Below, piece by piece: positions 8,761 through 21,177 of a stretch of DNA of 21,177 nucleotides (positions are counted from its first letter, which is position 1; every line of letters starts with the position of its first letter). The position numbers and the translations under genes are program-made. The notes under the pieces are model-generated. The model was not told where the DNA came from and made no database searches. It saw only the letters and a list, made by a program, of their open reading frames with translations. This DNA comes from a virus (lineage: Duplodnaviria; Heunggongvirae; Uroviricota; Caudoviricetes): the IMG/VR virus record IMGVR_UViG_2531839102_000019, positions 1 to 21,177 of that record. One strand, given 5' to 3'.

Positions 8761-11700
8761 ATGGCTTTTTCAGATGAGCAGCGCCCTGAAGCGCAATTGG
8801 GTAACCAGAACCGCAGCAGCCTGAACATTAAGCAGCCGGGAGAAAATTACTGGCAGGATTTTTTCAGCAACCCGCAGAATGCCATTGATCACAGCACATC
8901 GTTCAGCCTCGGTGATGTATTGCCAACAATGGGTAAAGGTTTCGCCCAGTCCGTCCGGGGAACAGGGGAAATGGCCCGTGGACTCGGTGATGCGATGATT
9001 CAGAGCCCGGTAAAAACAGGGGTGCGTATTTTAAATGAGTTCAGCCGTATGGGGCTGCCGGGTGTCGCAACTGTGCAGGATATTTTTGCCGGTGGCAGCA
9101 GGGGGGCTGATGAGGTCATCGATACCCTGCCTGATGGCAAAAACGCGGTTACTGATACTGTCGGTAAAGGTCTGAAGGCAACCGGTAAGGCTGTCAGTGA
9201 TGGTGCCAAAGCCACTGATGAATGGCTGACCGGTAAGATGTCGCCGGGTGCAGTTCGTGCGCTGAATACGCCGATGACCGAAGGCTATAATGATTCTGCG
9301 GTCTGGGTGGCGAAGGGTGTAAACCTGATTGGTGCGCTTGTACCTGATATGGTTGCTGGCGGTGTGGCTAGAAAGGTGGGTGATGTCACACTGCGAAAAA
9401 TGCTGACCGCCGGGCTGGAGAAAAAATACATCGCGGCAGGGATGCAGCCGGAAAGAGCCACGGCACTGGCAGCAGAAGCTGTCGATAAAAAAATGCCGGA
9501 TTTATTCCAGGCGGGCCTGATCACCCATTCCACTGTAAGTGCACAGGGGCAGAGTGCAATGGCGGCAGCAGATGCTGTTCTTAATGCTGATTACTCTGAG
9601 CTGGCGCAGTCACCGAAATTTCAGCAGACGTTTTTGTCCATTGACGCCGACCCGCAGCACGCACAGCTTACTGATCGCCAGAAAATGGATCTGGCAAAAG
9701 AGCGTGTTGCCGATGAGGTGCGCGCGCAGCTGGCAACCGATCCTGAATTGCTGGCTGTGAATGCCATGGCGGCAAAACTGGGTGACGCACAACTGTTTAA
9801 TCTGGTGACACGAGGCACAGCGAAGACCGTTAAAAGCGGCATTGTCAGAAATGCCACGGAACAGGGGGCGATTAATGCGGCGCAGGGCGGCTATTCACGC
9901 TATCAGGAAAACACGGCATTGCGTGAGACCGCCGGAATGGGGGTGTCACCGTGGGAGGGCGTGGCTGACGCAACGATCGAAGGTGCAGCCTTTGGTGCTG
10001 CGATGGGGGCTCCATTCGGTGCGGTTGCCGGATATCGTGGCAGACGTCAGGCCGCAGAAGAAACCGCCATGCGTGATGCTGAAACCGTGCAGCAGGACGA
10101 CGCAGCCCCGCAACCAGAATCTGTTGATCCGGTGGCGCAGCAGCGTGAATCCATGCAGGGCATGAATCGCGAGCAGCTTCTGGAGCAGTATGCTGATGCG
10201 GATATGGCAACAGAGGGTGACGCATCCGCAGCTCATCGCCGGGAAGCTGCCAGCCAGTTGTTGAATGAACTGGACGAACAGGCGAAGCGACAGGCTGTGA
10301 TGAATGAGCTGAAGGCGAAGCCGCGTTCTGAACTGCTTGAGGAATACCGCAGACTCAGCCAGAAAGAGGGGCGCACCGAGACTGAAGAACAACAGTTTCA
10401 GGCAATACGAGAAGTCATTCGCCCACAACAGGAAGTGACGCCGGAAGCACAGTCACAGCCTGAAAATGCGGAGGATGGTAACGGGAGCATTTACCCGACG
10501 GTGCGGTTCCGGGACCCGAATGAAGTCCGCATTGAAATTAACGGGAATGGTGCGTCCAGACCAGCGGAACGCATTGAGAAGGTGCGCCCGGACAACCGTT
10601 ATTTCACGGATGAGAAAAGCGCCATGGGGAGTGATGTTTTCCGTAATGCCGCCGCCACCGGCCTGAAACCGTCCGTAGTGAAGAAAGGCGAGAATCAGTA
10701 TGCCGTTGAAATGGATAATCCTGCGTTCTCTGAAGATGTGGCAACGGAAACCATTAACACCCTGGCTGACGGAGAGCGTATTGCTGATGCTGACCCGATG
10801 GAGCAGCCCGCGTTCATGCGTGACCCGCGATTCCGTGGTTTCACGGGGGATGATACGGAGGTACAGGCCCGCCTTGCCCGTGGCAACGCGCCGACGGCAG
10901 AGGAGCTTGTACGTTCACAGATGGCTGAAGGTGATGCCGGTCCGACAGCACAGGAGTTAACTGAGCGTCCACGCCTGCCCGCTCCCGGCGATATTCATCC
11001 CGGACAGGGATATCCGTTACCGGGAGAAGTGGCGCGTACGCCGGATGAAAATCAGGCCGGACGTGGTGGTCGTTTTACCACAACCGGTGAGGTTAAGGGC
11101 CAGAGTTTCCAGAAAGGACAAGCTCCGGCACCGGAAAACGCCGCTGGTCGCCAGGGGGAAACACTCGAGGGTGACATGGTTCGTCGTGGTCTGCCGTCAC
11201 CGGATGCGCAGAACGCGACAGCACCGGTACGTGAAGGGCTACCGGCTCCTGACATTGCGCGTAATGTTCGTATGCCTCAGCCTGAATCACTTCCCCGCAC
11301 TGTACGGGACTCACTGCCTGAGCTTGCACAGCAGGCAGAAGTACGCCGACAGGCCGGAGGAAATCGTGACATCCCGCAGCCTGAGACAATCGCACCTGAA
11401 TCTGAAACAACTGTCTCTACTGACAGGGAAGCTACCGTGCGCGGAGGTGAAGTCAGGGGCAAAAAAATTGAAGACTTTGGTGAAGAAATTAAGGGCGCGG
11501 CAAAACACCGTTATGCACAGCTTGCTGAAACACTGGGTAAAACGCTGGAAGACAGGGATTATGCCACTCAGCCGCTGAGCAAACTGTTCCCGAAACCGGA
11601 CTACGCAAAACTGGCGAACGAAGGTGCTGATGCTGATACCCTGGCAATGATAGCGCTGTATCGTAGCGATATTCCGGCGAAGACGAAACACAATACGGCA

Positions 11701-14700
11701 GGCTGGGGGGAGAGCATAAAAAAAGTACGACACAGTGTATCGGAAATGCTGAACGGAACGGTCAGCGCGAAACGCCTCGCAGAATGGATGGAAGGTAGAA
11801 TGCCCTCCCGTTACGCGGATACCTGGCAACTGTTACGCACTCTGCCACCCTCACAGATGGACAGGGCTTCTGCTTATCGGGTGGTATCGGGTGTGTATCA
11901 GGCGGCAGGAGGGAAGCGTTACGATCCGCCACAGAAACTTTATTCACTGCGCAATAAGGACAATAAGGGTAGTAACCTCTTTTTCTCGGAAAGCAGGGAT
12001 GAATTACTGACAAAGGCGAAAGTCTGGTTTGCAGAGCAGGAGGAAAAATCACAGGCGAAAGGTGATGAAAAAACAGCGCCTTCACCGGATGACAAAATCC
12101 GCTTTGACGTTTACCGGAATACCCGCAGTGGCGATATTTTTATCGCTTACGGTAAAAACAAAATGCGGGTGAGAGGTGGCTTTAAGTCAGCCAGTGATGC
12201 GCGTAAGTACATTGATTCACATCGTGATGAGCTTGTTCGTCATGTGAAGGATATGCGGGAGATTTCGCGTGAGGAGCAGCGTAACGCCACCAACCGCGAC
12301 CGTACCGGACCAGAACGCCGTAAAGGGGATGTTTCACCGGAGCAGTTCAGTGATGCGTTTGGTTTCCGTGGTGTGCAGTTTGGTAACTACGTGGAAGGTC
12401 CGCGTCGTCAGGCTGATTTGAACCGGGCTTATGACTCGCTGCATGACCTTGCGGAAGTACTGAATGTACCGACAAAAGCGCTTTCCCTGAACGGTCGTCT
12501 TGGCCTGGCATTTGGTGCCCGTGGTAAGGGTAAGGCGGCGGCACACTATGAGTCAGGTGAGGTGGCAATCAACCTGACAAAAGGTAACGGACCGGGTGCG
12601 CTGGCGCACGAATGGTTCCATTCTCTGGATAATTATTTTGGTCGTTATGACGTTTCCAATGACGGGAAAATTACGTCAGGTGGCGACTTTATGACGGAAG
12701 CACAGCGTGTCAGGCGCATATTTAAAGACGGCAGGTATGTTGATGCTGAATATCCGGTACGTCAGGAGGTTTACGACGCTTTTAAAGGTGTGATTCAGGC
12801 CATTAAAAACAGTGACATGCCGCGTCGTTCAGCGCTTCTCGATGAGGTGCGCTCAAAACCGTACTGGTCAACGGATGTTGAAATGGCGGCGCGTGCCTTT
12901 GAGCGTTATGTTCAGGATAAAGCGCGTACGGCTGGCGTGGAGAATGATTATCTGGTCAATATCCGTAAGGCACCTGAGCACAACACAGATAACACCTGGG
13001 CTTATCCGACGAATGCGGAACTGGATGGCGGTATTCGTGAGGCATTCGATCACCTGTTCCGCACCCTGAAAACCCGTGAGACGGACAAGGGCGTTGCGTT
13101 TTATTCCCGTAAGGGCGTTACCCGTACACCTGAAGGTAATCTCATTTCGGATGTTAACCGTAGTGCGGAAGCTAAAGGCAGCCCGGTCCCGCAGGTTGAA
13201 GCGGTTGCCCGTGGCGTGATGAGCGGCATTAAGGACAGTGACCTGAAGGTCCGTGTGGTGAAGTCACAGAAAGAGGCTGAAGCGCTGGCGGGCGAATCGT
13301 TCGATGGTTACGGCAGGGTGCACGCATTCTATCGTCCGGATAAACGAGAAATTGTCCTGGTGGCGGATAACATCCCTGACGGGCGGACCGTACGCGAGAA
13401 GTTGCGTCACGAGATTATCCACCATGCCATGGAGCATGTTGTCACGCCAGCGGAATATCAGACGATTATCAAAACCGTGCTGAAAACCCGCGACAGTGAT
13501 AACGCCACCATCCGTGAAGCCTGGCGTAAGGTTGATGCGTCCTATGGTAAGGAATCACCGGAAGTGCAGGCGGGTGAATTTCTGGCACATATGGCGGAGA
13601 AACAGCCGAATAAATTCGTGGCGGCATGGGAGCGTGTTGTTGCCCTGGTCAAAGGGGTACTGCGTCGTACGGGGTTACTGAAGCCGACGGAACTGAACGA
13701 TATCAGACTTGTTCGCGAGACCATCCGTACGTTAGGCCAGCGTGTGCGGGAAGGTTACACGCCGCGTGAGGATGGCGCGGACGCATCGTCTCAGTACTCC
13801 CGTAGTGGTAAACCTGATCCGTTCAAAGTGCCGGAAGGTGAGGGCGAGCGTTATCGTGATGACCTTGCCAGAATGATGAAGTCTCTGCGCTCAACGGATT
13901 TAACGGTAAACATCGGGCGTACGCCGCCGGTATTGCGTCACCTTGGCGCACCAGATTTGCCGCTGGTTATCTCCCGCGACACTGTGCGTAAGGCCACCAA
14001 TGGTGTGAAACATGTGGTGCCGATGGATGTTATCGAGAGACTACCGGAACTGATGCACGATCCGGATGCAATTTACCGTTCCGCGACAGAAAGAAACGCG
14101 GTTGTGATGCTGCTTGATGCCGTGGATAAAAATGGTGATCCGGTGGTGTCAGCGGTACACATGAAGGCTGTCCGGTCGCGCCTGGAAATCAACAAGGTGG
14201 CATCTGTTTACGGTACGGAAAACGGGAAAAAACTGAAGAGTATGGAAATGACCGGTTTAACGTTGTACCGGAGAGAAAAATTAAGCCGCGATAACCTTCT
14301 GCACAGAGGGCTCCAATTGCCCAAAGGGGAACATTCTTATCGCGGCTCTGTTGATAAAATACTCTATCCTGAAGATATTCGCAAGGGGCCGTATTACTCC
14401 CGCACCAGCAGTCTGACGCCGGAAGAGACAATTGCATCCCGTTTTGTTCGCCAGATGCAGGATAAATTCCAGGTGCTGAAGGCGGTGCAGGAGAATATCC
14501 GTAAAACTGGCGGAAAAATAGATGACAGCAATAACGCCTATATGGCTGAAGAACTCTTCCACGGGAAGGCGGAAAACGACCTGAACGTAATGAAGGAGCG
14601 CTACGTTCAGCCGCTGGCCAAATTGCTGGCGGACTACAAAATTGCGCAGGCCGATCTGGATGAGTACCTCTACGCCCGTCACGCGCCGGAACGTAACGCG

Positions 14701-17139
14701 CATATTGCGAAAATCAACCCGAAAATGCCGGACGGCGGTTCGGGGATGACCAACGCGGAAGCGGCGGAAATCATGCAGCGTGTGCGTAACAGCGGCAAAC
14801 AGGCACAGTATGACCGTCTGGCAGGGATTATTGACGATATGCTGGCCCGTCGCCGTGAGATTATCCGTGAGGCAGGACTGGAAGAGAGCGGCGTGGTGGA
14901 TGCCTGGCAGAAAGCCTACCGTTACTACGTCCCCCTGAAAGGGCAGGATGTTGACGGTGTGGTGTCACTGCCACGTACAGGCAAGGGATTCACCATCGGC
15001 GGGCGTGAAAGTAAGCAGGCCATGGGGCGTGCATCCCGCGCACAGTCTCCTTCCACTCAGGCGATACAGGATTTGAGTGAATCGCTGATCCGCAATCGCA
15101 AAAATGAAGTGGGTAACGCCTTCCTGAAACTGGTACAGGATAATCCCGACAAGGATTACTGGCAGGTATTCAGTGATGACAGACCGGATACCATGCGTGT
15201 GATTGCAGAGCGCAAGGACCAGGAAACTGGTGAAACCATTCGCGAAGTTGTCGAGCGTCCGGTGGCGATGGCAATGATGGCAGACCGGTACTTCACCACC
15301 AAAAAGAACGGCAAAACGTACTACATCAAACTCCATGATCCGCGCCTGATGCGTGCGATGAAGAATATGGGACCGGAAACCAGTAACGCAGTAATCCGTA
15401 CGCTGGGGAAAGTTAACCGCTTCCTGGCAACGGTGAACACGTCGTATAACCCGGAATTCCTGGTCAGTAACTTCATCCGTGACGTGCAGACAGCGGTGAT
15501 GAATCTGAAGGCGGAGCAGGGAAGGAGCGACGGCAAACTGAAAGGGCTGGATAACTTATCCGCACTGGCTGTGGTGAAAGACAGCCGTTCTGCTATGTCA
15601 GCCGTATACGCCAGTCTGCGTGGCAAAAACCTCACGGGCAAAGGTGCGCAGTGGCAGAAGGTGTGGAAAGAGTTTGTTGAGGACGGAGGTAAAACCGGCT
15701 GGTTTAACATGGGTGACCTTGAAGGCCAGCAGAAGGAAATGGATCGCCTTGTATCGCTGGCGAAGGGAGGATGGAAAGGCCAGAGTATCGGTGCATGGAA
15801 TTCGTTCCTGAACCTGGTCGAGGATGCCAACGGTGCGGTTGAAAACGCACTGCGTCTGTCAGCTTATAAACACGCCCGTGATGCCGGTTTGTCACGCCAG
15901 CAGGCGGCGTCTCTTGCCAAAAACATGACGGTGAACTTTAACCGTCGTGGTGAGCAGGGGGCGCTGATGAACTCGCTGTACATGTTCGCCAACGCCAGTA
16001 TTCAGGGAACGGCAAATCTGGTGAGAACGCTCGGACATCTTAATGGTGAGGGACCTTTACTGGAGCGCCTTCGCTGGAAGAATCTGAATGTTCCGCAGAA
16101 AATCGCGCTTGCCGCTGTGGGAGCAGGTTATCTGCTTGGCTCGCTTAACCGCAGTGTGGCGGGTGAGGATGATGACAGGGTTAACTGGTATGACAAAGTA
16201 CCGTCTCATGTGAAAGAGCGTAACCTCGTCATCATGAAATCGATGTTCGGGGGCAAGGCCGGTGAGTACTGGAGTATTCCTCTGCCTTACGGGTACAACG
16301 TTTTCTTCCTGCTTGGTCACACAGCCGAAGGGGTGGCGGCGGGCGACCTGACCGCTTCACGTGCTGCCGGTAATGTTGTTGGTGGTGTGCTTGGGGCATT
16401 CAGCCCGATCGGCAGTGAGACGTCGGAAACGTTGTCCGGGGCATTGCTGAAAAACGCAGCGCCAACCATTCTGCGTCCGTTTGCTAACCTTGCCATGAAC
16501 GAAAACTTCATGGGGGCGCAGATTTACCAGGAGAACATGCCGTTTGGTACACCGAAACCGGACAGCCAGCTGGGAAGACGTTCAACGCCTGAGGCGTACA
16601 AGTCCTTTGCGTCCTGGCTGAATGCGTTCTCTGGTGGCAGCCAGTACCGCTCAGGCGCGGTGGATGTCACGCCGGAATCACTGAAATACTGGATTGACTA
16701 TATCTCTGGTGGTACAGGGCGTTTTATTGCCAAATCGACGGATGCGGCGGTGAAATCGCTGAATGGTATTGATATACCGGAGCAGCAGGTGCCTTTCCTG
16801 GGGAAAATTTCAGGTGAGGTGATGCCGTATGCTGACCAGCAGAAGATGTATGACCGGATGACGGAGGTTGCGCAGTACCACGCAGAGCTGAAGAGTCTGA
16901 CCGGTGCAGAAAGAACGGCGTTCATTGACGAGAACAACGGAAAATTGTCGATGAACGGGCTTATGCAGGATACCCGGAAGAGACTGAAGGATTTGCGCAA
17001 ACAGCGCGATGCCATTTATGCCGACAGTTCTCTCAGTCTGGCGCAGCAGGCGGCGATGGTGAAATCGGTAGAGCGGGATATGAAGGTTGCCGTGGATCGC
17101 TTTAACCGCGAGTACAACAAAAAAGTGGGAGTGGAGTAA
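8761..17139 (+). CDS. Giant multi-domain protein (2,792 aa) with two zincin-like HExxH motifs; putative virion-delivered polyvalent effector
   Basis: Uninterrupted 8,379-nt frame; GGAG ribosome-binding site; HEWFH at aa 1283-1287 (nt 12607-12621) and HEIIHHAMEH at aa 1550-1559 (nt 13408-13437); Pro-rich low-complexity linker around aa 730-890; Gly/Ala-rich hydrophobic segments near both termini; no P-loop or signal peptide recognised. Confidence 0.9.
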   Translation: MAFSDEQRPEAQLGNQNRSSLNIKQPGENYWQDFFSNPQNAIDHSTSFSLGDVLPTMGKGFAQSVRGTGEMARGLGDAMIQSPVKTGVRILNEFSRMGLPGVATVQDIFAGGSRGADEVIDTLPDGKNAVTDTVGKGLKATGKAVSDGAKATDEWLTGKMSPGAVRALNTPMTEGYNDSAVWVAKGVNLIGALVPDMVAGGVARKVGDVTLRKMLTAGLEKKYIAAGMQPERATALAAEAVDKKMPDLFQAGLITHSTVSAQGQSAMAAADAVLNADYSELAQSPKFQQTFLSIDADPQHAQLTDRQKMDLAKERVADEVRAQLATDPELLAVNAMAAKLGDAQLFNLVTRGTAKTVKSGIVRNATEQGAINAAQGGYSRYQENTALRETAGMGVSPWEGVADATIEGAAFGAAMGAPFGAVAGYRGRRQAAEETAMRDAETVQQDDAAPQPESVDPVAQQRESMQGMNREQLLEQYADADMATEGDASAAHRREAASQLLNELDEQAKRQAVMNELKAKPRSELLEEYRRLSQKEGRTETEEQQFQAIREVIRPQQEVTPEAQSQPENAEDGNGSIYPTVRFRDPNEVRIEINGNGASRPAERIEKVRPDNRYFTDEKSAMGSDVFRNAAATGLKPSVVKKGENQYAVEMDNPAFSEDVATETINTLADGERIADADPMEQPAFMRDPRFRGFTGDDTEVQARLARGNAPTAEELVRSQMAEGDAGPTAQELTERPRLPAPGDIHPGQGYPLPGEVARTPDENQAGRGGRFTTTGEVKGQSFQKGQAPAPENAAGRQGETLEGDMVRRGLPSPDAQNATAPVREGLPAPDIARNVRMPQPESLPRTVRDSLPELAQQAEVRRQAGGNRDIPQPETIAPESETTVSTDREATVRGGEVRGKKIEDFGEEIKGAAKHRYAQLAETLGKTLEDRDYATQPLSKLFPKPDYAKLANEGADADTLAMIALYRSDIPAKTKHNTAGWGESIKKVRHSVSEMLNGTVSAKRLAEWMEGRMPSRYADTWQLLRTLPPSQMDRASAYRVVSGVYQAAGGKRYDPPQKLYSLRNKDNKGSNLFFSESRDELLTKAKVWFAEQEEKSQAKGDEKTAPSPDDKIRFDVYRNTRSGDIFIAYGKNKMRVRGGFKSASDARKYIDSHRDELVRHVKDMREISREEQRNATNRDRTGPERRKGDVSPEQFSDAFGFRGVQFGNYVEGPRRQADLNRAYDSLHDLAEVLNVPTKALSLNGRLGLAFGARGKGKAAAHYESGEVAINLTKGNGPGALAHEWFHSLDNYFGRYDVSNDGKITSGGDFMTEAQRVRRIFKDGRYVDAEYPVRQEVYDAFKGVIQAIKNSDMPRRSALLDEVRSKPYWSTDVEMAARAFERYVQDKARTAGVENDYLVNIRKAPEHNTDNTWAYPTNAELDGGIREAFDHLFRTLKTRETDKGVAFYSRKGVTRTPEGNLISDVNRSAEAKGSPVPQVEAVARGVMSGIKDSDLKVRVVKSQKEAEALAGESFDGYGRVHAFYRPDKREIVLVADNIPDGRTVREKLRHEIIHHAMEHVVTPAEYQTIIKTVLKTRDSDNATIREAWRKVDASYGKESPEVQAGEFLAHMAEKQPNKFVAAWERVVALVKGVLRRTGLLKPTELNDIRLVRETIRTLGQRVREGYTPREDGADASSQYSRSGKPDPFKVPEGEGERYRDDLARMMKSLRSTDLTVNIGRTPPVLRHLGAPDLPLVISRDTVRKATNGVKHVVPMDVIERLPELMHDPDAIYRSATERNAVVMLLDAVDKNGDPVVSAVHMKAVRSRLEINKVASVYGTENGKKLKSMEMTGLTLYRREKLSRDNLLHRGLQLPKGEHSYRGSVDKILYPEDIRKGPYYSRTSSLTPEETIASRFVRQMQDKFQVLKAVQENIRKTGGKIDDSNNAYMAEELFHGKAENDLNVMKERYVQPLAKLLADYKIAQADLDEYLYARHAPERNAHIAKINPKMPDGGSGMTNAEAAEIMQRVRNSGKQAQYDRLAGIIDDMLARRREIIREAGLEESGVVDAWQKAYRYYVPLKGQDVDGVVSLPRTGKGFTIGGRESKQAMGRASRAQSPSTQAIQDLSESLIRNRKNEVGNAFLKLVQDNPDKDYWQVFSDDRPDTMRVIAERKDQETGETIREVVERPVAMAMMADRYFTTKKNGKTYYIKLHDPRLMRAMKNMGPETSNAVIRTLGKVNRFLATVNTSYNPEFLVSNFIRDVQTAVMNLKAEQGRSDGKLKGLDNLSALAVVKDSRSAMSAVYASLRGKNLTGKGAQWQKVWKEFVEDGGKTGWFNMGDLEGQQKEMDRLVSLAKGGWKGQSIGAWNSFLNLVEDANGAVENALRLSAYKHARDAGLSRQQAASLAKNMTVNFNRRGEQGALMNSLYMFANASIQGTANLVRTLGHLNGEGPLLERLRWKNLNVPQKIALAAVGAGYLLGSLNRSVAGEDDDRVNWYDKVPSHVKERNLVIMKSMFGGKAGEYWSIPLPYGYNVFFLLGHTAEGVAAGDLTASRAAGNVVGGVLGAFSPIGSETSETLSGALLKNAAPTILRPFANLAMNENFMGAQIYQENMPFGTPKPDSQLGRRSTPEAYKSFASWLNAFSGGSQYRSGAVDVTPESLKYWIDYISGGTGRFIAKSTDAAVKSLNGIDIPEQQVPFLGKISGEVMPYADQQKMYDRMTEVAQYHAELKSLTGAERTAFIDENNGKLSMNGLMQDTRKRLKDLRKQRDAIYADSSLSLAQQAAMVKSVERDMKVAVDRFNREYNKKVGVE

Positions 17140-17147
17140 CAGAACAT

Positions 17148-17169
17148 GCCCCGTACGGAAGTGCGGGGC
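17148..17169. other. Stem-loop between the convergent plus and minus transcription units
   Basis: GCCCCGTAC-GGAA-GTGCGGGGC (one G:U pair); no U-tract on either strand. Confidence 0.35.
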
Positions 17170-17266
17170 TGATTAAGAAATAAACACTCATTGACCTGTA
17201 ATAACTGGAGCTATTAACATATAGTCAGAAAGAGCATTTCATGTGATACAGAGAGCCGATTTATGT

Positions 17267-17608
17267 TTAATGAAGAAAAGTTGCGCAAATGGCAGCGTAT
17301 TTGCTGAAAAAGCATGGCGGATCTATGCGTTTCATTAAGCTGAAGCAGCAACGGTAATTGCCGTGCCAATCATCAGCCCAACTGGTTAACCCTGGCGCAT
17401 CAATGCTAGGCATATAGACGCTTGCAGTGTGGTAGCCCTTATCGTTATCAATGCTGGCAACGTGCTCGCCGTTGTATGCGCTCAGCGTGTCTAGGACACT
17501 ATAAAACTTTCCTCCGGCTGCCCTGAAATCCTTTACAGCCTTCACAAGACGATTCCACGCTTTTTCCTGTTCTGGCGTCAGGTCGATTAATTCCTGCAAA
17601 GTTGCCAT
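17267..17608 (-). CDS. Hypothetical phage accessory protein (113 aa)
   Basis: ATG at 17608 with AAGGAA ribosome-binding site, 1 nt after the stop of the upstream gene; the longer 17698 start lacks a ribosome-binding site and would overlap that gene. Confidence 0.6.
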   Translation of the reverse strand: MATLQELIDLTPEQEKAWNRLVKAVKDFRAAGGKFYSVLDTLSAYNGEHVASIDNDKGYHTASVYMPSIDAPGLTSWADDWHGNYRCCFSLMKRIDPPCFFSKYAAICATFLH

Positions 17609-17609
17609 T

Positions 17610-17828
17610 TCAGTTTTCCTTATATGGGTTAATTTTATTGTGCAGTGTGTTGAACGACGCCCATACCACGTCGTTATACAACTCAATAACTGGTTCAATT
17701 ATTTTCCCGATAAACCAGACCAGTAATAGCGGGGATATTGGTATCATCAACACGATAAACAGAATGAGAAACAAAAATTCTGTCGCTCTACTTTTTCGCG
17801 GATATTTTTTTCTAAATAATGTGACCAT
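17610..17828 (-). CDS. Small predicted membrane protein (72 aa)
   Basis: Hydrophobic core FLFLILFIVLMIPISPLLLVWFIG; directly abuts the downstream gene. Confidence 0.45.
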   Translation of the reverse strand: MVTLFRKKYPRKSRATEFLFLILFIVLMIPISPLLLVWFIGKIIEPVIELYNDVVWASFNTLHNKINPYKEN

Positions 17829-17915
17829 TCATTACCGCCCTTTCGGGCGGCCTCCCGATGTTCTGAGGGTGCAGAAATCCCTCCGGTTAAGGATTAAATT
17901 AATAATATGATGTAA

Positions 17916-18104
17916 TTAATTCATGTAGTGCGAACCATACTCCCAATGATGGCTAATTATTTCGGCAGCATCTCCATAACATAAATTATCCGGTTTCATA
18001 TCTTTGTCTTGCCCGAATTTACTTTCAACAAAATCATCAATATCCTGATGCGGGGCATTGGCAGGGACTGAAATTACAGTTGTCACTATTATTGTTCGAT
18101 TCAC
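17916..18104 (-). CDS. Small hypothetical protein (about 62 aa, GTG start)
   Basis: AGGAGG 8 nt upstream of GTG at 18104, embedded in the end of the Ea22-like gene; weak support. Confidence 0.4.
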   Translation of the reverse strand: MNRTIIVTTVISVPANAPHQDIDDFVESKFGQDKDMKPDNLCYGDAAEIISHHWEYGSHYMN

Positions 18105-18108
18105 TTTC

Positions 18109-18945
18109 TCACCCTCCTTTGATGCGAATGCCAGCAACACGTAGTGCATGTTCTAAGTCAGCCAGATAAAGCCAGCAGCCATTTTCTTTAGGTATCATGA
18201 CGTGGCGCTCATCATCATTTATCGGATGTCCATATCGAAGGCCGTAGCGAGTCGGCAAATGAACTTCCCGCGTTTCCAGCTCTTTAACGCGTTCCTCCAG
18301 TTCGTAGACCCTGCATTGTTCTCTATCATCAATCAGATATAACCCAAGACATTCGCTTTCTACCCAACCGCCAAAATCATGATCGTAACGCTCACATGAA
18401 AACTCACCGTCACCGTCCTTTGTTGGAATGGTGTAACTATCTAATGGGCCACCATATGTCGGCACATTTCCCAATGTTGGATGCTCAATCCACATGAAAA
18501 ATGTACGTCCGGTTATTGGGCAAATATCTGGCCGCCATTGGTTACGAACAGCCTTGGTTTCGGATAATTCTTCAGCGTGTTGTTTTACTTCCTCAAGCTC
18601 AACACGCAGCTTCCTAACCGTAAGAGCAATTTCCTCGTTCACCTGGTCGCGGCTTTTGATGTATTGCTGGTTTCTTTCCCGTTCATCCAGCAGTGCCAGC
18701 ACGGTAGCCGGATTGGCTGCGGCGATGAATTCAGCATTGGCCTGCTGTTCCATTTGGAAATCTTCATCGAAACCGCTTTCAGGATGTGCTCCTTCAATTC
18801 TGCAAATGGGAATATATCCAGCAGCCTCGCGATGAATTAGTGCATCATCACCATCAAATCGGTTCTCTCCATATTCGAGCGACCACTCACCACGCGTTGC
18901 TTTTTCTGCCTTTTCACGCAGTACCTGATAGTTAATCTCGCTCAT
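18109..18945 (-). CDS. Ead/Ea22-like phage protein
   Basis: N-terminus MSEINYQVLREKAEKATRGEW and internal LLDERERNQQYIKSRDQ match the lambda Ea22 family signature as I recall it; GGAG ribosome-binding site upstream of ATG at 18945. Confidence 0.85.
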   Translation of the reverse strand: MSEINYQVLREKAEKATRGEWSLEYGENRFDGDDALIHREAAGYIPICRIEGAHPESGFDEDFQMEQQANAEFIAAANPATVLALLDERERNQQYIKSRDQVNEEIALTVRKLRVELEEVKQHAEELSETKAVRNQWRPDICPITGRTFFMWIEHPTLGNVPTYGGPLDSYTIPTKDGDGEFSCERYDHDFGGWVESECLGLYLIDDREQCRVYELEERVKELETREVHLPTRYGLRYGHPINDDERHVMIPKENGCWLYLADLEHALRVAGIRIKGG

Positions 18946-19216
18946 TTTTCTCTTCGCTCCGGTATACAAGAATTACAACGTCACCTCTGCTAATTACGCG
19001 AGCTGGATCTCCTGGCTCCATGCTGTCAATCCCGAAGGCTTCGGAAAACGCATTCATTGCCTTCTGGCGTTGATCCTGCTTACGGCATTTATTCCATTTT
19101 TTCAGTAACAACAGCGATAGCCACCGCCCGGCGCAGAACATAATGTAAAAATAACCAAGAAGCGCCAGACCTGTGTTGAGGGTCGTATCGATCGTTATAG
19201 TGGTGTCTATGCTCAC
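18932..19216 (-). CDS. Small hypothetical membrane protein (94 aa)
   Basis: Transmembrane segment LALLGYFYIMFCAGRWLSLLLL; start overlaps the upstream stop by 4 nt and its end overlaps the Ea22-like start. Confidence 0.6.
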   Translation of the reverse strand: MSIDTTITIDTTLNTGLALLGYFYIMFCAGRWLSLLLLKKWNKCRKQDQRQKAMNAFSEAFGIDSMEPGDPARVISRGDVVILVYRSEEKNERD

Positions 19217-19434
19217 TTCACACCTCTCTGTTTGTTGATAAGTTCAATATCCTGCTGGCAACTGGCGCAAGTTCGGCATCCGCGAACAGCCTGGCGTCGC
19301 CGCTCATCTATCGGATCGCCACACTCGCAACAATGAGTAGCAGATGGGGCATTACTATCGGATTTGTATTTTTGCAGGGAGAGATTGCGCTGCAATTCTT
19401 CGATTTCAGCGGCGTTGTCGATGATATCTGCCAT
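19213..19434 (-). CDS. TraR/DksA-family C4 zinc-finger protein
   Basis: CxxC...CxxC in CECGDPIDERRRQAVRGCRTCASCQ; 73 aa; this family is common in lambdoid early operons. Confidence 0.8.
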   Translation of the reverse strand: MADIIDNAAEIEELQRNLSLQKYKSDSNAPSATHCCECGDPIDERRRQAVRGCRTCASCQQDIELINKQRGVK

Positions 19435-19454
19435 TTTCCTTTCCTTCAGGCATG

Positions 19455-19477
19455 AAAAAAGGAGCCGAAGCTCCTTT
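19455..19477 (-). terminator. Intrinsic terminator on the minus strand between the antirepressor-like and TraR-like genes
   Basis: On the minus strand: GGAGC-UUCG-GCUCC hairpin flanked by A3/U3 extension and followed by a U-run; about 20 nt upstream of the TraR-like start. Confidence 0.5.
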
Positions 19478-19481
19478 GGTT

Positions 19482-20111
19482 TCAGAATTCAAATTGTCTT
19501 GCTCTTAGTTGCGCCAGCATACTTCTGGCCCTATGCACCATATAGTTGGCGGGATCAAGTTTTGCTGCTTCGCGGAGCAATGTGTCGCGAGTCCGGTTGG
19601 TTATATGACGAGTTTCGTAGGTCAGATCAAACAGCTTTCCATAGTAATCAGAGTTCAGTTCTCTCATGACGGGGTATAGCTGTTTACTGAGTTGTTGTGC
19701 TTTTTCCATCCAGAGCTGCATGTAGCAAAGGAGGATGATTTCCTCGTCTGTGAATTGTTGCTGTGGTTCTGCTTGTGCCGACTGCATGTTGCGAAGTTTC
19801 TTTTCGCACTCGATGAAGTATCTGCGTATCTGTCGGCCTTTTTCGTTACGCTCTACCATCGCCGTTTCTTTGGCTGTATCGAGGGTAAGGTGGTAGTCTT
19901 TTTTCCCTCGCCCATAACCTATTTCCCGTTTCTGGGAAATAGCTATATAGTCCTGATTTTCAACGAATCCGTACTCTTCAATACGTTCTGTAATCCACGA
20001 TGCAAAGCGTTTACCTACTCCAAGAAAAGTATGTAAATCACGGGCATTAACGAGAAGAGTGGTTTCGTTGGCGATAGTGCCGTTGAATACGGGGATGAGT
20101 TGACTGGTCAT
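19482..20111 (-). CDS. Phage antirepressor-like protein (AntA/AntB-type N-terminal domain)
   Basis: N-terminus LIPVFNGT...VNARDLHTFLGVGKRFASWITERIEEYGFVENQDY fits the AntA-type pattern; AAGGAGG ribosome-binding site upstream of ATG at 20111. Confidence 0.7.
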   Translation of the reverse strand: MTSQLIPVFNGTIANETTLLVNARDLHTFLGVGKRFASWITERIEEYGFVENQDYIAISQKREIGYGRGKKDYHLTLDTAKETAMVERNEKGRQIRRYFIECEKKLRNMQSAQAEPQQQFTDEEIILLCYMQLWMEKAQQLSKQLYPVMRELNSDYYGKLFDLTYETRHITNRTRDTLLREAAKLDPANYMVHRARSMLAQLRARQFEF

Positions 20112-20139
20112 GATGACCTCCTTATTTGTTTAGTTTATA

Positions 20140-20162
20140 ACCGCCAGTTAGTAGCTGGCGGT
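20140..20162. promoter_or_regulatory. Perfect 8-bp inverted repeat in the antirepressor leader (candidate operator or leader hairpin)
   Basis: ACCGCCAG-TTAGTAG-CTGGCGGT, 29 nt upstream of the antirepressor start on the minus strand; a TTGACA hexamer lies just upstream on that strand. Confidence 0.35.
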
Positions 20163-20406
20163 CGGGTGTCAACTGAGCCAAATAAGAAGCTCTGGGCATA
20201 TTCCCCTTGCGGGTGTTGTATTACGCCTCTCCACCCGACCTTTGTACGGATGTAACTATGCCAAATTGCAGGCATAAAAAAGCCGCAAAGCTATCGGGTG
20301 CGGAGACCGCTTATTTGTTCAGTGCGGTCAGTATGCGATAGCTCTGGAGGATTTGTCAATCAGCGGAATATTGATGAACGGGTAACGGTAAATGCCTCAT
20401 CCAGAA

Positions 20407-20443
20407 AATTAACGCAAATTCGCATCGCAAACTTGCGTTAATT
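20407..20443. repeat. 11-bp inverted repeat with 15-nt spacer in the attR-proximal phage arm
   Basis: AATTAACGCAA ... TTGCGTTAATT. Confidence 0.45.
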
Positions 20444-20476
20444 ATCTGAAATATCAAGTTAAATCCCCTTAAATGT

Positions 20477-20526
20477 TTGGGGCACTATTGGGGCAAAATG
20501 TGGTTGTTTGGGGCATATTTGGGGCA
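20477..20526 (+). repeat. Four direct copies of TTGGGGCA (candidate integrase arm-type or Xis binding sites)
   Basis: Copies start at 20477, 20488, 20508 and 20519 (spacing 11, 20, 11 bp), about 120-170 bp from the phage/host junction. Confidence 0.5.
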
Positions 20527-20635
20527 AAAAAGAACGTATAAAGAACGGTGTAAAATTGATTTCTTCATGGTCAAAATGAGGTGTAACAGATTGAAAAATA
20601 TATGCTCTTGGACGATCTTCGGTAATTCTGTGTTT

Positions 20636-20698
20636 TTAATGCTTCATGGTTTCAATATGTCCGTACATGGAATAATAAAGCACCAGAACTTTAGCCAT
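20636..20698 (-). pseudogene. wrbA: Truncated 5' end of wrbA, interrupted by prophage insertion
   Basis: Minus-strand translation [18 protein letters not shown] matches the WrbA N-terminus I recall ([22 protein letters not shown]...) for 18 codons, then diverges (K-H-stop). Confidence 0.8.
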
Positions 20699-21069
20699 TT
20701 CTAACCACTCCTCGTGTTATCTCTATTCCGTAGCGATTCGCTACCACTTATTTAAAGATAAGACGTCCTTTTCAGAGTGCAAATTTCACAACCACTTATT
20801 TGATTTATAACAACTTTCACAAGCACGCAATTTTGTCGCAAAATGACACATTTTTATCTCATCGCGTTTTTTTAATCATAAGAGCGGCTTATGGATAATT
20901 ATTGGAGATGATATCTATTCTCGCTAAGAAGCTGTTGCAGGATATTACCAAACGCGGGTAGAAACACGTCAGTTCACTAAGCTTAGTCCCACGTAGCGAA
21001 AATATGGCAGCCGCCATACGCCGCGTTAATTCTAGCAATATGATGTCTATACCCAGACGGAGGTCAGTA

Positions 21070-21177
21070 ATGGCAAACCATCGAGGCGGTTCCGGCAATT
21101 TTGCAGAAGACCGCGAAAGAGCATCAGAAGCAGGTAAAAAAGGTGGCAAGAGCAGTCACGGCAAAAGCGACAACTAG
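21070..21177 (+). CDS. ymdF: KGG-motif general stress protein, YmdF/YciG family (35 aa)
   Basis: GGAGG 6 nt upstream of ATG; translation MANHRGGSGNFAEDRERASEAGKKGGKSSHGKSDN; stop codon is the last 3 nt of the window. Confidence 0.7.
   Translation: MANHRGGSGNFAEDRERASEAGKKGGKSSHGKSDN

Follow-up and report, generated by a model that had tools for sequence, protein, structure and literature searches.

Where exactly does phage DNA meet chromosomal DNA at the right-hand end of a prophage in the Escherichia coli gene wrbA, and what do the repeats on the phage side do? The question is posed by a viral stretch of 21,177 nucleotides (IMG/VR record IMGVR_UViG_2531839102_000019; hereafter the window), near the right end of which an earlier note, written from the letters alone, had seen a prophage/host junction with direct and inverted repeats beside it. 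wrbA is one of the classical insertion sites of Shiga toxin 2 (Stx2) phages in E. coli O157:H7. We find that the region is attR, the right-hand prophage/chromosome junction of a lambdoid prophage that resembles Stx phages of the 933W/Sp5 type and is inserted in E. coli wrbA. Taken as a whole, the locus is with high probability best explained by an attR that arose through integrase recombination and that carries octamer repeats serving as arm sites of the integrase (Int) and a hairpin serving as an RNA element. Coordinates of the features are collected in Table 1.

The prophage junction in wrbA

Positions 20100-21177 of the window are 100% identical to positions 1308313-1309390 of E. coli O157:H7 Sakai, the right end of the element annotated as "prophage Sp5, lambda-like phage", where the annotation runs from the antirepressor gene ECs_1251 across the Sp5 boundary to rutG (NC_002695.2). 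At least 80% of this segment lies in one place in 151 of 5,426 complete E. coli genomes, and the remaining matching genomes hold only part of it. The VT2-Sakai record (AP000422) describes wrbA as "divided by the insertion of prophage". The 7-bp core, the wrbA stub and the neighbours ant and ymdF are common to the window and to the attR sites of both Sp5 (VT2-Sakai) and 933W. The prophage/host junction in wrbA that had been proposed is therefore real: it is identical to the annotated Sp5/VT2-Sakai attR and shares its core with the attR of 933W. The 6-bp "attachment site" of AP000422 (GTTTCA) maps to window positions 20649-20654, and the 7-bp "attR core" of the 933W record (AF125520) maps to 20649-20655. 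Both junction and core have been in GenBank since 1999-2000, and finding them here adds nothing new in itself.

Around the core, a stretch of 17 bp is shared imperfectly: CAT(g/c)GTTTCAA(c/t)ATGTC (20645-20661). We placed the crossover by comparing attB in K-12 (CATcGTTTCAAtATGTC; GCCATC GTTTCAA TATGTCCG), attL in Sakai (GCCATC GTTTCAA CATGTCTA), attR in the window (TTCATG GTTTCAA TATGTCCG) and attP in the circular record of Stx2 phage I (CATgGTTTCAAcATGTC; TTCATG GTTTCAA CATGTCTA). Because GTTTCAA alone is common to all four sites while the flanks switch, strand exchange occurred inside this heptamer, at 20649-20655, which reads TTGAAAC on the wrbA strand and covers codons Ile15 to Thr17. The alignment to an uninterrupted wrbA that the earlier note had proposed for defining the core thus yields GTTTCAA. 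To the left of the core lies the phage P arm; to the right lie the wrbA 5' codons, the wrbA promoter region, which extends rightward from this host-derived 5' end and is intact in the prophage, and ymdF.

On the minus strand, positions 20645-20698 encode 18 residues identical to the N-terminus of K-12 WrbA, followed by K, H and a stop, and in translation the earlier count of 18 wrbA codons holds. Phage DNA nevertheless supplies position 20648, the last base of the Thr17 codon (C on the wrbA strand versus G in attB, giving ACC in place of ACG), as well as the ATG at 20645-20647, and Met18 has been kept by coincidence because the phage flank CATg resembles the host flank CATc. The junction set earlier at 20640-20647, in codon 19, marks only the end of visible wrbA similarity; the crossover itself falls in codons 15-17.

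The 3' part of wrbA, expected at the other prophage end if the junction was read correctly, is present in Sakai, where codons 15-198 are fused at attL directly next to int and xis. One point tempers the picture: this other end is known from Sakai, whose attR is identical, and not from the window's own genome. At the Sakai attL (NC_002695.2 1244500-1249500, local positions 1683-1686), the int stop overlaps an in-frame ATG of the remaining wrbA as ATGA. The overlap yields an open reading frame (ORF) of 192 residues (MINHILRHVETMARAV...) whose translation may be coupled to that of int. RefSeq lists this ORF as a wrbA pseudogene; the first beta-strand of WrbA and the residues of its flavin mononucleotide (FMN) loop are missing from it. 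At attR, we rejected as a gene the plus-strand ORF at 20477-20704 (75 residues; a hypothetical protein named ORF-43 or B44 in several phage records), which almost certainly is none because it spans the att core, and so is altered by integration, and because part of it translates the octamer repeats described below.

Is the prophage then Sp5? Our initial assumption that the whole window equals Sakai was ruled out by the alignments: positions 1-2729 are, like 20100-21177, 100% identical to Sakai, whereas 17100-19600 reach only 89-92%, and the best match to the whole window, from a bovine isolate, stands at 97.8%. By this comparison the window belongs to the 933W/Sp5 (Sepvirinae) group at wrbA as a mosaic member and is not Sp5 itself. 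The divergent part, an ea22-like/DUF region upstream of ant, is 89-92% identical to both Sakai and 933W with both its flanks identical, and looks like a recombinational mosaic patch. Sakai Sp5 (VT2-Sakai, Stx2a) carries stx2A and stx2B about 21 kb to the left of the point homologous to the start of the window, and the guess that the prophage belongs to an Stx2-phage lineage is in this way confirmed through an identical attR. The window itself contains no stx gene, as the earlier note had said; since the window is a mosaic relative of Sp5 and not Sp5, the stx status of its prophage is not readable from it.

Table 1. Features around attR in the window, with the basis of each assignment.
Feature	Position	Strand	Basis or remark
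Antirepressor gene ant (AntA/P22_AR_C), last prophage gene before attR	19482-20111	-	Pfam PF08346 (3e-27), PF10548
sRNA-Xcc1 (RF02221) in the ant leader	20152-20240	-	Full-length match, 69.1 bits versus gathering threshold 53, E = 1e-11
Sigma-70-like promoter match TTGACA-18-CATACT, toward sRNA-Xcc1 and ant	20330-20359	-	Consensus match only
Predicted hairpin, 24 bp with one U/U mismatch and 3-nt loop, then UUUUCUGG	20402-20448	-	RNA folding
Four TTGGGGCA octamers, candidate P-arm arm-type sites of Int	20477-20484, 20488-20495, 20508-20515, 20519-20526	+	Two 31-bp units, one pair each
Pair of direct AAAGAACG repeats, spaced by 11 bp, adjoining the last octamer	20529-20547	+	Repeat analysis
Block ATATGCTCTTGGACGATCTTCGG, -52 to -30 from the core centre	20600-20622		Conserved in attP arms with different cores
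Truncated wrbA frame at attR, 20 residues and stop TAA (20636-20638)	20636-20698	-	Translation; codons 18-20 and stop are phage DNA
att core (overlap region) GTTTCAA, 7 bp	20649-20655		GenBank annotation and attB/attL/attR/attP four-way comparison
Host-derived wrbA 5' end, codons 1-14 and first base of codon 15	20656-20698	-	Identical to K-12 wrbA
Host gene ymdF, short allele, 35 residues	21070-21177	+	66-bp in-frame deletion versus K-12 (57 residues)

Octamer repeats on both arms of attP

The four direct octamers on the P arm lie where the earlier note had placed them, spaced 11/20/11 bp, and span -175 to -126 from the core centre. They are organized in two successive 31-bp units (TGTTTGGGGCAnnAnTTGGGGCAAAA...; 20474-20504 and 20505-20535) with two octamers each. 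A single further copy of TTGGGGCA occurs in the 21-kb window (at 16391), compared with an expectation of 1.2 copies per window after shuffling; none of 100 shuffles reached 5.

The same motif is found on the opposite arm. Sp5 int encodes a protein of 436 residues that combines an N-terminal Arm-DNA-bind_2 domain (PF12167, residues 7-70, E = 6e-26) with a Phage_integrase domain (PF00589), and lies beside the gene for an excisionase (Xis) of the DUF1233 family. Because only 22 bp separate the int stop codon from the core, the P' arm falls within int. Here TTGGGGCA and CTGGGGCA form a pair with a spacing of 11 bp, which points the same way as the P-arm copies and spans +67 to +85 relative to the core centre. 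Both arms thus carry a repeated motif that bears no relation to the core, four copies on P and two on P', and the intact attP shows all six.

Since the P' copies lie in coding DNA, we considered how they are read and how they vary. The two heptamers sit in different int frames, as xxT-GCC-CCA (Ala-Pro) and xTG-CCC-CAx (Val/Met-Pro-Gln/His), and both are near-invariant in int homologues, third codon positions included, with TGTCCCA as the sole variant. The flanking codons, in contrast, vary freely, as do the 3-4 nt that separate the heptamers. Moreover, the variant TGGGACA occurs on both arms in the same lineages.

Relatives with other insertion sites extend this pattern. The Salmonella prophage Fels-1, whose Int is 65% and whose Xis is 63% identical to those of Sp5 and whose core is different, has a P arm reading TTGGGGCA/GTGGGGCA/TTGGGGTA/TTGGGGCA with the same spacings (11/20 and 10-11 bp; GTGGGGCA and TTGGGGTA are one-base variants) and a P' pair, TTGGGGCA/CTGGGGCA, inside int. 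A scan of IMG/VR with the Int protein returned many integrases at 68-73% identity, most of which keep the P' pair. A pattern scan of the same database for the two-pair layout returned 42 distinct P arms, which typically lie at a distance of 150-270 bp from the end of a prophage. For four of the 42, the opposite end of the contig encodes an Int with 69-70% or 100% identity; many of the 42 belong to prophages at the yecD site. Fels-1 and the yecD/yecE-site prophages thus resemble the wrbA-site phages in their Int (65-73% identical, with the same arm domain), in having two pairs on P and one on P', and in a conserved near-core block, ATGCTCTTGGRCG; they differ in their cores and host targets. Across these alignments, the motif and its layout track the integrase family and not the integration target.

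The yecD-site prophages also differ in what adjoins the P arm. In place of ant with its sRNA-Xcc1 leader, they have a gene of the dinI family whose LexA box, close to the consensus, is some 40-60 bp away from the first octamer. An assignment of these LexA-boxed arms to Rac/ttcA prophages was ruled out, as their flank is the dinI-family gene next to yecD.

We conclude that the integrase very probably uses the octamers as arm-type sites, which its N-terminal Arm-DNA-bind_2 domain is predicted to bind, because the placement of the octamers on both arms, their conservation across the family and the constraint on them at the DNA level fit the pattern expected of arm sites. The parallel with lambda is close in several respects. 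There, as here, int lies beside attL and the P arm lies in attR, the overlap is 7 bp, a repeated arm motif unrelated to the core is found on both arms at comparable distances, and Int has a separate N-terminal arm domain. The differences are that the arm domain belongs to another family here and the motif is NTGGGGCA; that the sites come in 11-bp pairs, with 4-8 on P and 2 on P'; that the P' sites lie within the int frame, which ends so close to the core; that the search for consensus sites of integration host factor (IHF) returned no convincing one; and that binding is here a prediction.

Could an accessory protein, the DUF1233 Xis or some other, bind the octamers instead? Lambda Xis sites are typically direct repeats with a spacing of about one helical turn, and conservation does not discriminate between the two proteins, Xis being conserved between Sp5 and Fels-1 much as Int is. 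The motif, however, occurs on both arms, including inside int on P', whereas Xis sites in the lambda paradigm are confined to the P arm; a dedicated arm-binding domain on Int needs sites; and the placement of the pairs (-175 to -126 and +67 to +85) is similar to that of the P1/P2 and P'1-3 sites in lambda. We therefore regard this alternative as improbable.

Some considerations weigh against Int arm sites all the same. A literature search for binding, footprinting or recombination reports on the arm sites of this integrase returned none, and we found no paper that combines 933W, arm-type and integrase. The choice of Int over Xis as the predicted binder draws on comparison and on the lambda paradigm. 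Finally, the Ala-Pro...Pro-Gln/His peptide is itself conserved, which leaves room for selection on the P' copies at the protein level.

The number of units on the P arm, 2, 3 or 4, is naturally polymorphic among near-identical Stx phages. The window and Sp5 have two 31-bp units, the attR of 933W differs from that of the window in having three, as does Stx2 phage I (six octamers), and Min27 has four (eight octamers). O104:H4-type and Stx1a phages keep the two-unit layout with four octamers that include at least one base change, 1-3 copies matching TTGGGGCA exactly; in phi191, two octamers carry single-base deletions. Such variability, for which the GenBank records of Sato et al. give merely the label "region III, arrangement g / gg", would also be shown by a neutral, slippage-prone minisatellite without a role in recombination. 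We find this very improbable, given that arms with different cores and little other similarity retain the octamer, its pairing at 11 bp and the layout of two pairs, and that an octamer pair persists in coding DNA on the P' arm as well.

If the octamers are arm sites, Int would act as a heterobivalent protein. Its catalytic and core-binding domains would engage the core, and its N-terminal domain would bind the NTGGGGCA octamers, as two 11-bp-spaced pairs on P and one pair on P' in the last codons of int. Arm-core bridging and bending, together with accessory proteins (the DUF1233 Xis and possibly IHF), would then build integrative and excisive intasomes as in lambda.

Two further P-arm features may be sites for such accessory proteins. 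The AAAGAACG pair is a weak candidate for accessory-factor sites, perhaps of Xis; Fels-1 and some IMG/VR arms retain it in part, and yecD-type arms have an inverted copy of the motif within their conserved block. The ATATGCTCTTGGACGATCTTCGG block is a candidate accessory-protein site on the strength of its conservation, and occupies the position at which lambda has the IHF site H2. A search for the IHF consensus gave one match with one mismatch (20584-20596, minus strand), which is no better than chance, and window-wide counts are below chance expectation.

An inverted repeat beyond the outermost octamer

Farther from the core than the octamers, we confirmed a perfect 11-bp inverted repeat (AATTAACGCAA / TTGCGTTAATT; 20407-20417 and 20433-20443), which extends to 22-nt arms around a 3-nt spacer (20402-20448). 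It had been described as lying within 170 bp of the junction, but its distance from the core is 204-250 bp. The earlier note had read both sets of repeats as binding sites for a recombinase or accessory factors on an attP arm. While the octamer half of that proposal gains comparative support, the inverted-repeat half is not borne out: by its folding asymmetry, the repeat is more likely a hairpin in minus-strand RNA.

The asymmetry is considerable. Folded as RNA, the minus strand, which is the strand of int, xis, ant and wrbA, reaches -28.3 kcal/mol (z = -6.1) compared with -20.0 for the plus strand, and where the stem is imperfect, the minus strand has G-U and the plus strand C-A. We compared five natural variants of the hairpin. 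Four of the five share the asymmetry. Between variants there is one compensatory pair (G-C to A-U), three pairs are changed on one side only, and one stem position steps from U/U through U-G to C-G.

These variants bear on the alternative that the repeat acts as double-stranded DNA, as an operator or accessory site (for example, for the leftward sRNA-Xcc1/ant promoter) or as part of the attP arm. A perfect 11-bp dyad 43 bp upstream of a promoter-like -35 box would suit an operator, in Fels-1 the corresponding position, immediately outside the repeats, is taken by a different palindrome (CAATGTTAACATTG), and the single compensatory change fits a symmetric operator equally well. Yet G-U (minus) and C-A (plus) positions are found in all variants, a signature of selection on RNA, and in Sp5 they make the minus-strand RNA about 10 kcal/mol more stable. 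The path from U/U to C-G passes through a state that pairs only in minus-strand RNA, and the repeat lies outside the outermost arm site. On balance we judge a double-stranded DNA site unlikely.

The position of the predicted hairpin suggests what an RNA element might do here. When the phage DNA is circular, the hairpin follows the int stop at a distance of about 220 nt, immediately outside the outermost arm site; downstream of int it could serve as a terminator or, like sib, as a target of RNase III. After integration it is placed instead between the wrbA promoter, which remains intact, and ant, where it would keep read-through from that promoter from reaching ant. In O104-type phages, ant and its leader are deleted (with the deletion ending near the equivalent of window position 20335), and the hairpin, the repeats and the core are kept.

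The sib/tI retroregulator of lambda int, reportedly the work of Guarneros, Echols and co-workers in the early 1980s, offers a precedent. It too is a long hairpin that is encoded on the int strand and lies across attP from int, immediately outside the outermost arm site. As the hairpin lies beyond attP from int, integration separates it from int, as in lambda. The two elements differ in that they share no sequence similarity, and in that the present one is a predicted element with an AU-rich stem and a weak U tract, absent from yecD-type relatives.

Several observations weigh against an RNA role. In the fifth variant (Stx1_2409) the strands are equal, at -18.5 versus -18.3 kcal/mol. A covariation test on the five variants was not significant, with one compensatory pair and one pair broken in four of the five. 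The stem is rich in A-U pairs, the U tract is short and interrupted (UUUUCU, overlapping the outer stem), and a consensus terminator scan did not call the hairpin. In the yecD-type relatives we found no equivalent hairpin. With these points included, an RNA terminator or insulator, possibly a retroregulator, is still our preferred reading over a protein-binding palindrome, with a probability slightly below even.

The antirepressor leader and the meaning of the locus

Much of the region left of 20400 that might be counted as "arm" concerns the regulation of ant and not attP. The sRNA-Xcc1 element is followed by a second hairpin (20140-20162) and then by the ant ribosome-binding site. A search of 20100-20700 for a LexA box upstream of ant gave none, and an Rfam search around the arm in four relatives, covering hok/sok and other families, returned only sRNA-Xcc1. 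The 933W copy of sRNA-Xcc1 in strain EDL933 is annotated and abundantly transcribed with very low ribosome coverage (PMC5331693), and in APSE phages a member of the family lies upstream of an ORF6N-domain gene (PMC7313666). This suggests that sRNA-Xcc1 is a cis-regulatory or processed RNA that controls antirepressor-type genes, in a role comparable to that of P1 c4 or P22 sar.

In phi191 (O104:H4-type), a deletion joins the conserved TTGACA box (equivalent to window position ~20354) to the middle of a hok-like gene, leaving a truncated Hok/Gef ORF directly beside the att module. On the host side of the junction, the 66-bp deletion in ymdF falls between two GCATCnGAAGCAGGTAAAAAAGGTGG repeats, and some records keep a 57-residue ymdF by using an upstream ATG at 21004. 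Elsewhere in the window, a single ORF of 2,792 residues (8761-17139, plus strand) fills 40% of the sequence and is an LPD38/LPD5-domain protein by the annotation of matching genomes.

What the analysis adds to the known junction is the placement of the crossover to the base; a comparative argument, across a family with several chromosomal targets, that the octamers are integrase arm sites; the observation that the number of arm-site units differs among Stx phages; and a candidate RNA element that could couple the expression of int and ant to the integration state. Among these, only the arm-site assignment and the sib-like idea are possibly new. Going further, paired NTGGGGCA may be an undescribed arm-site code of a widespread Arm-DNA-bind_2 integrase family that takes in 933W/Sp5 at wrbA, Fels-1 and the yecD/yecE-site phages, with sib-like retroregulation of int, a proposal that we advance tentatively and at somewhat worse than even odds. 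On this view, differences in the number of units (2, 3 or 4) could adjust how readily Stx phages integrate and excise, and through this how mobile they are. With current understanding of these phages unchanged, the findings could matter for engineering or predicting Stx-phage integration and excision.

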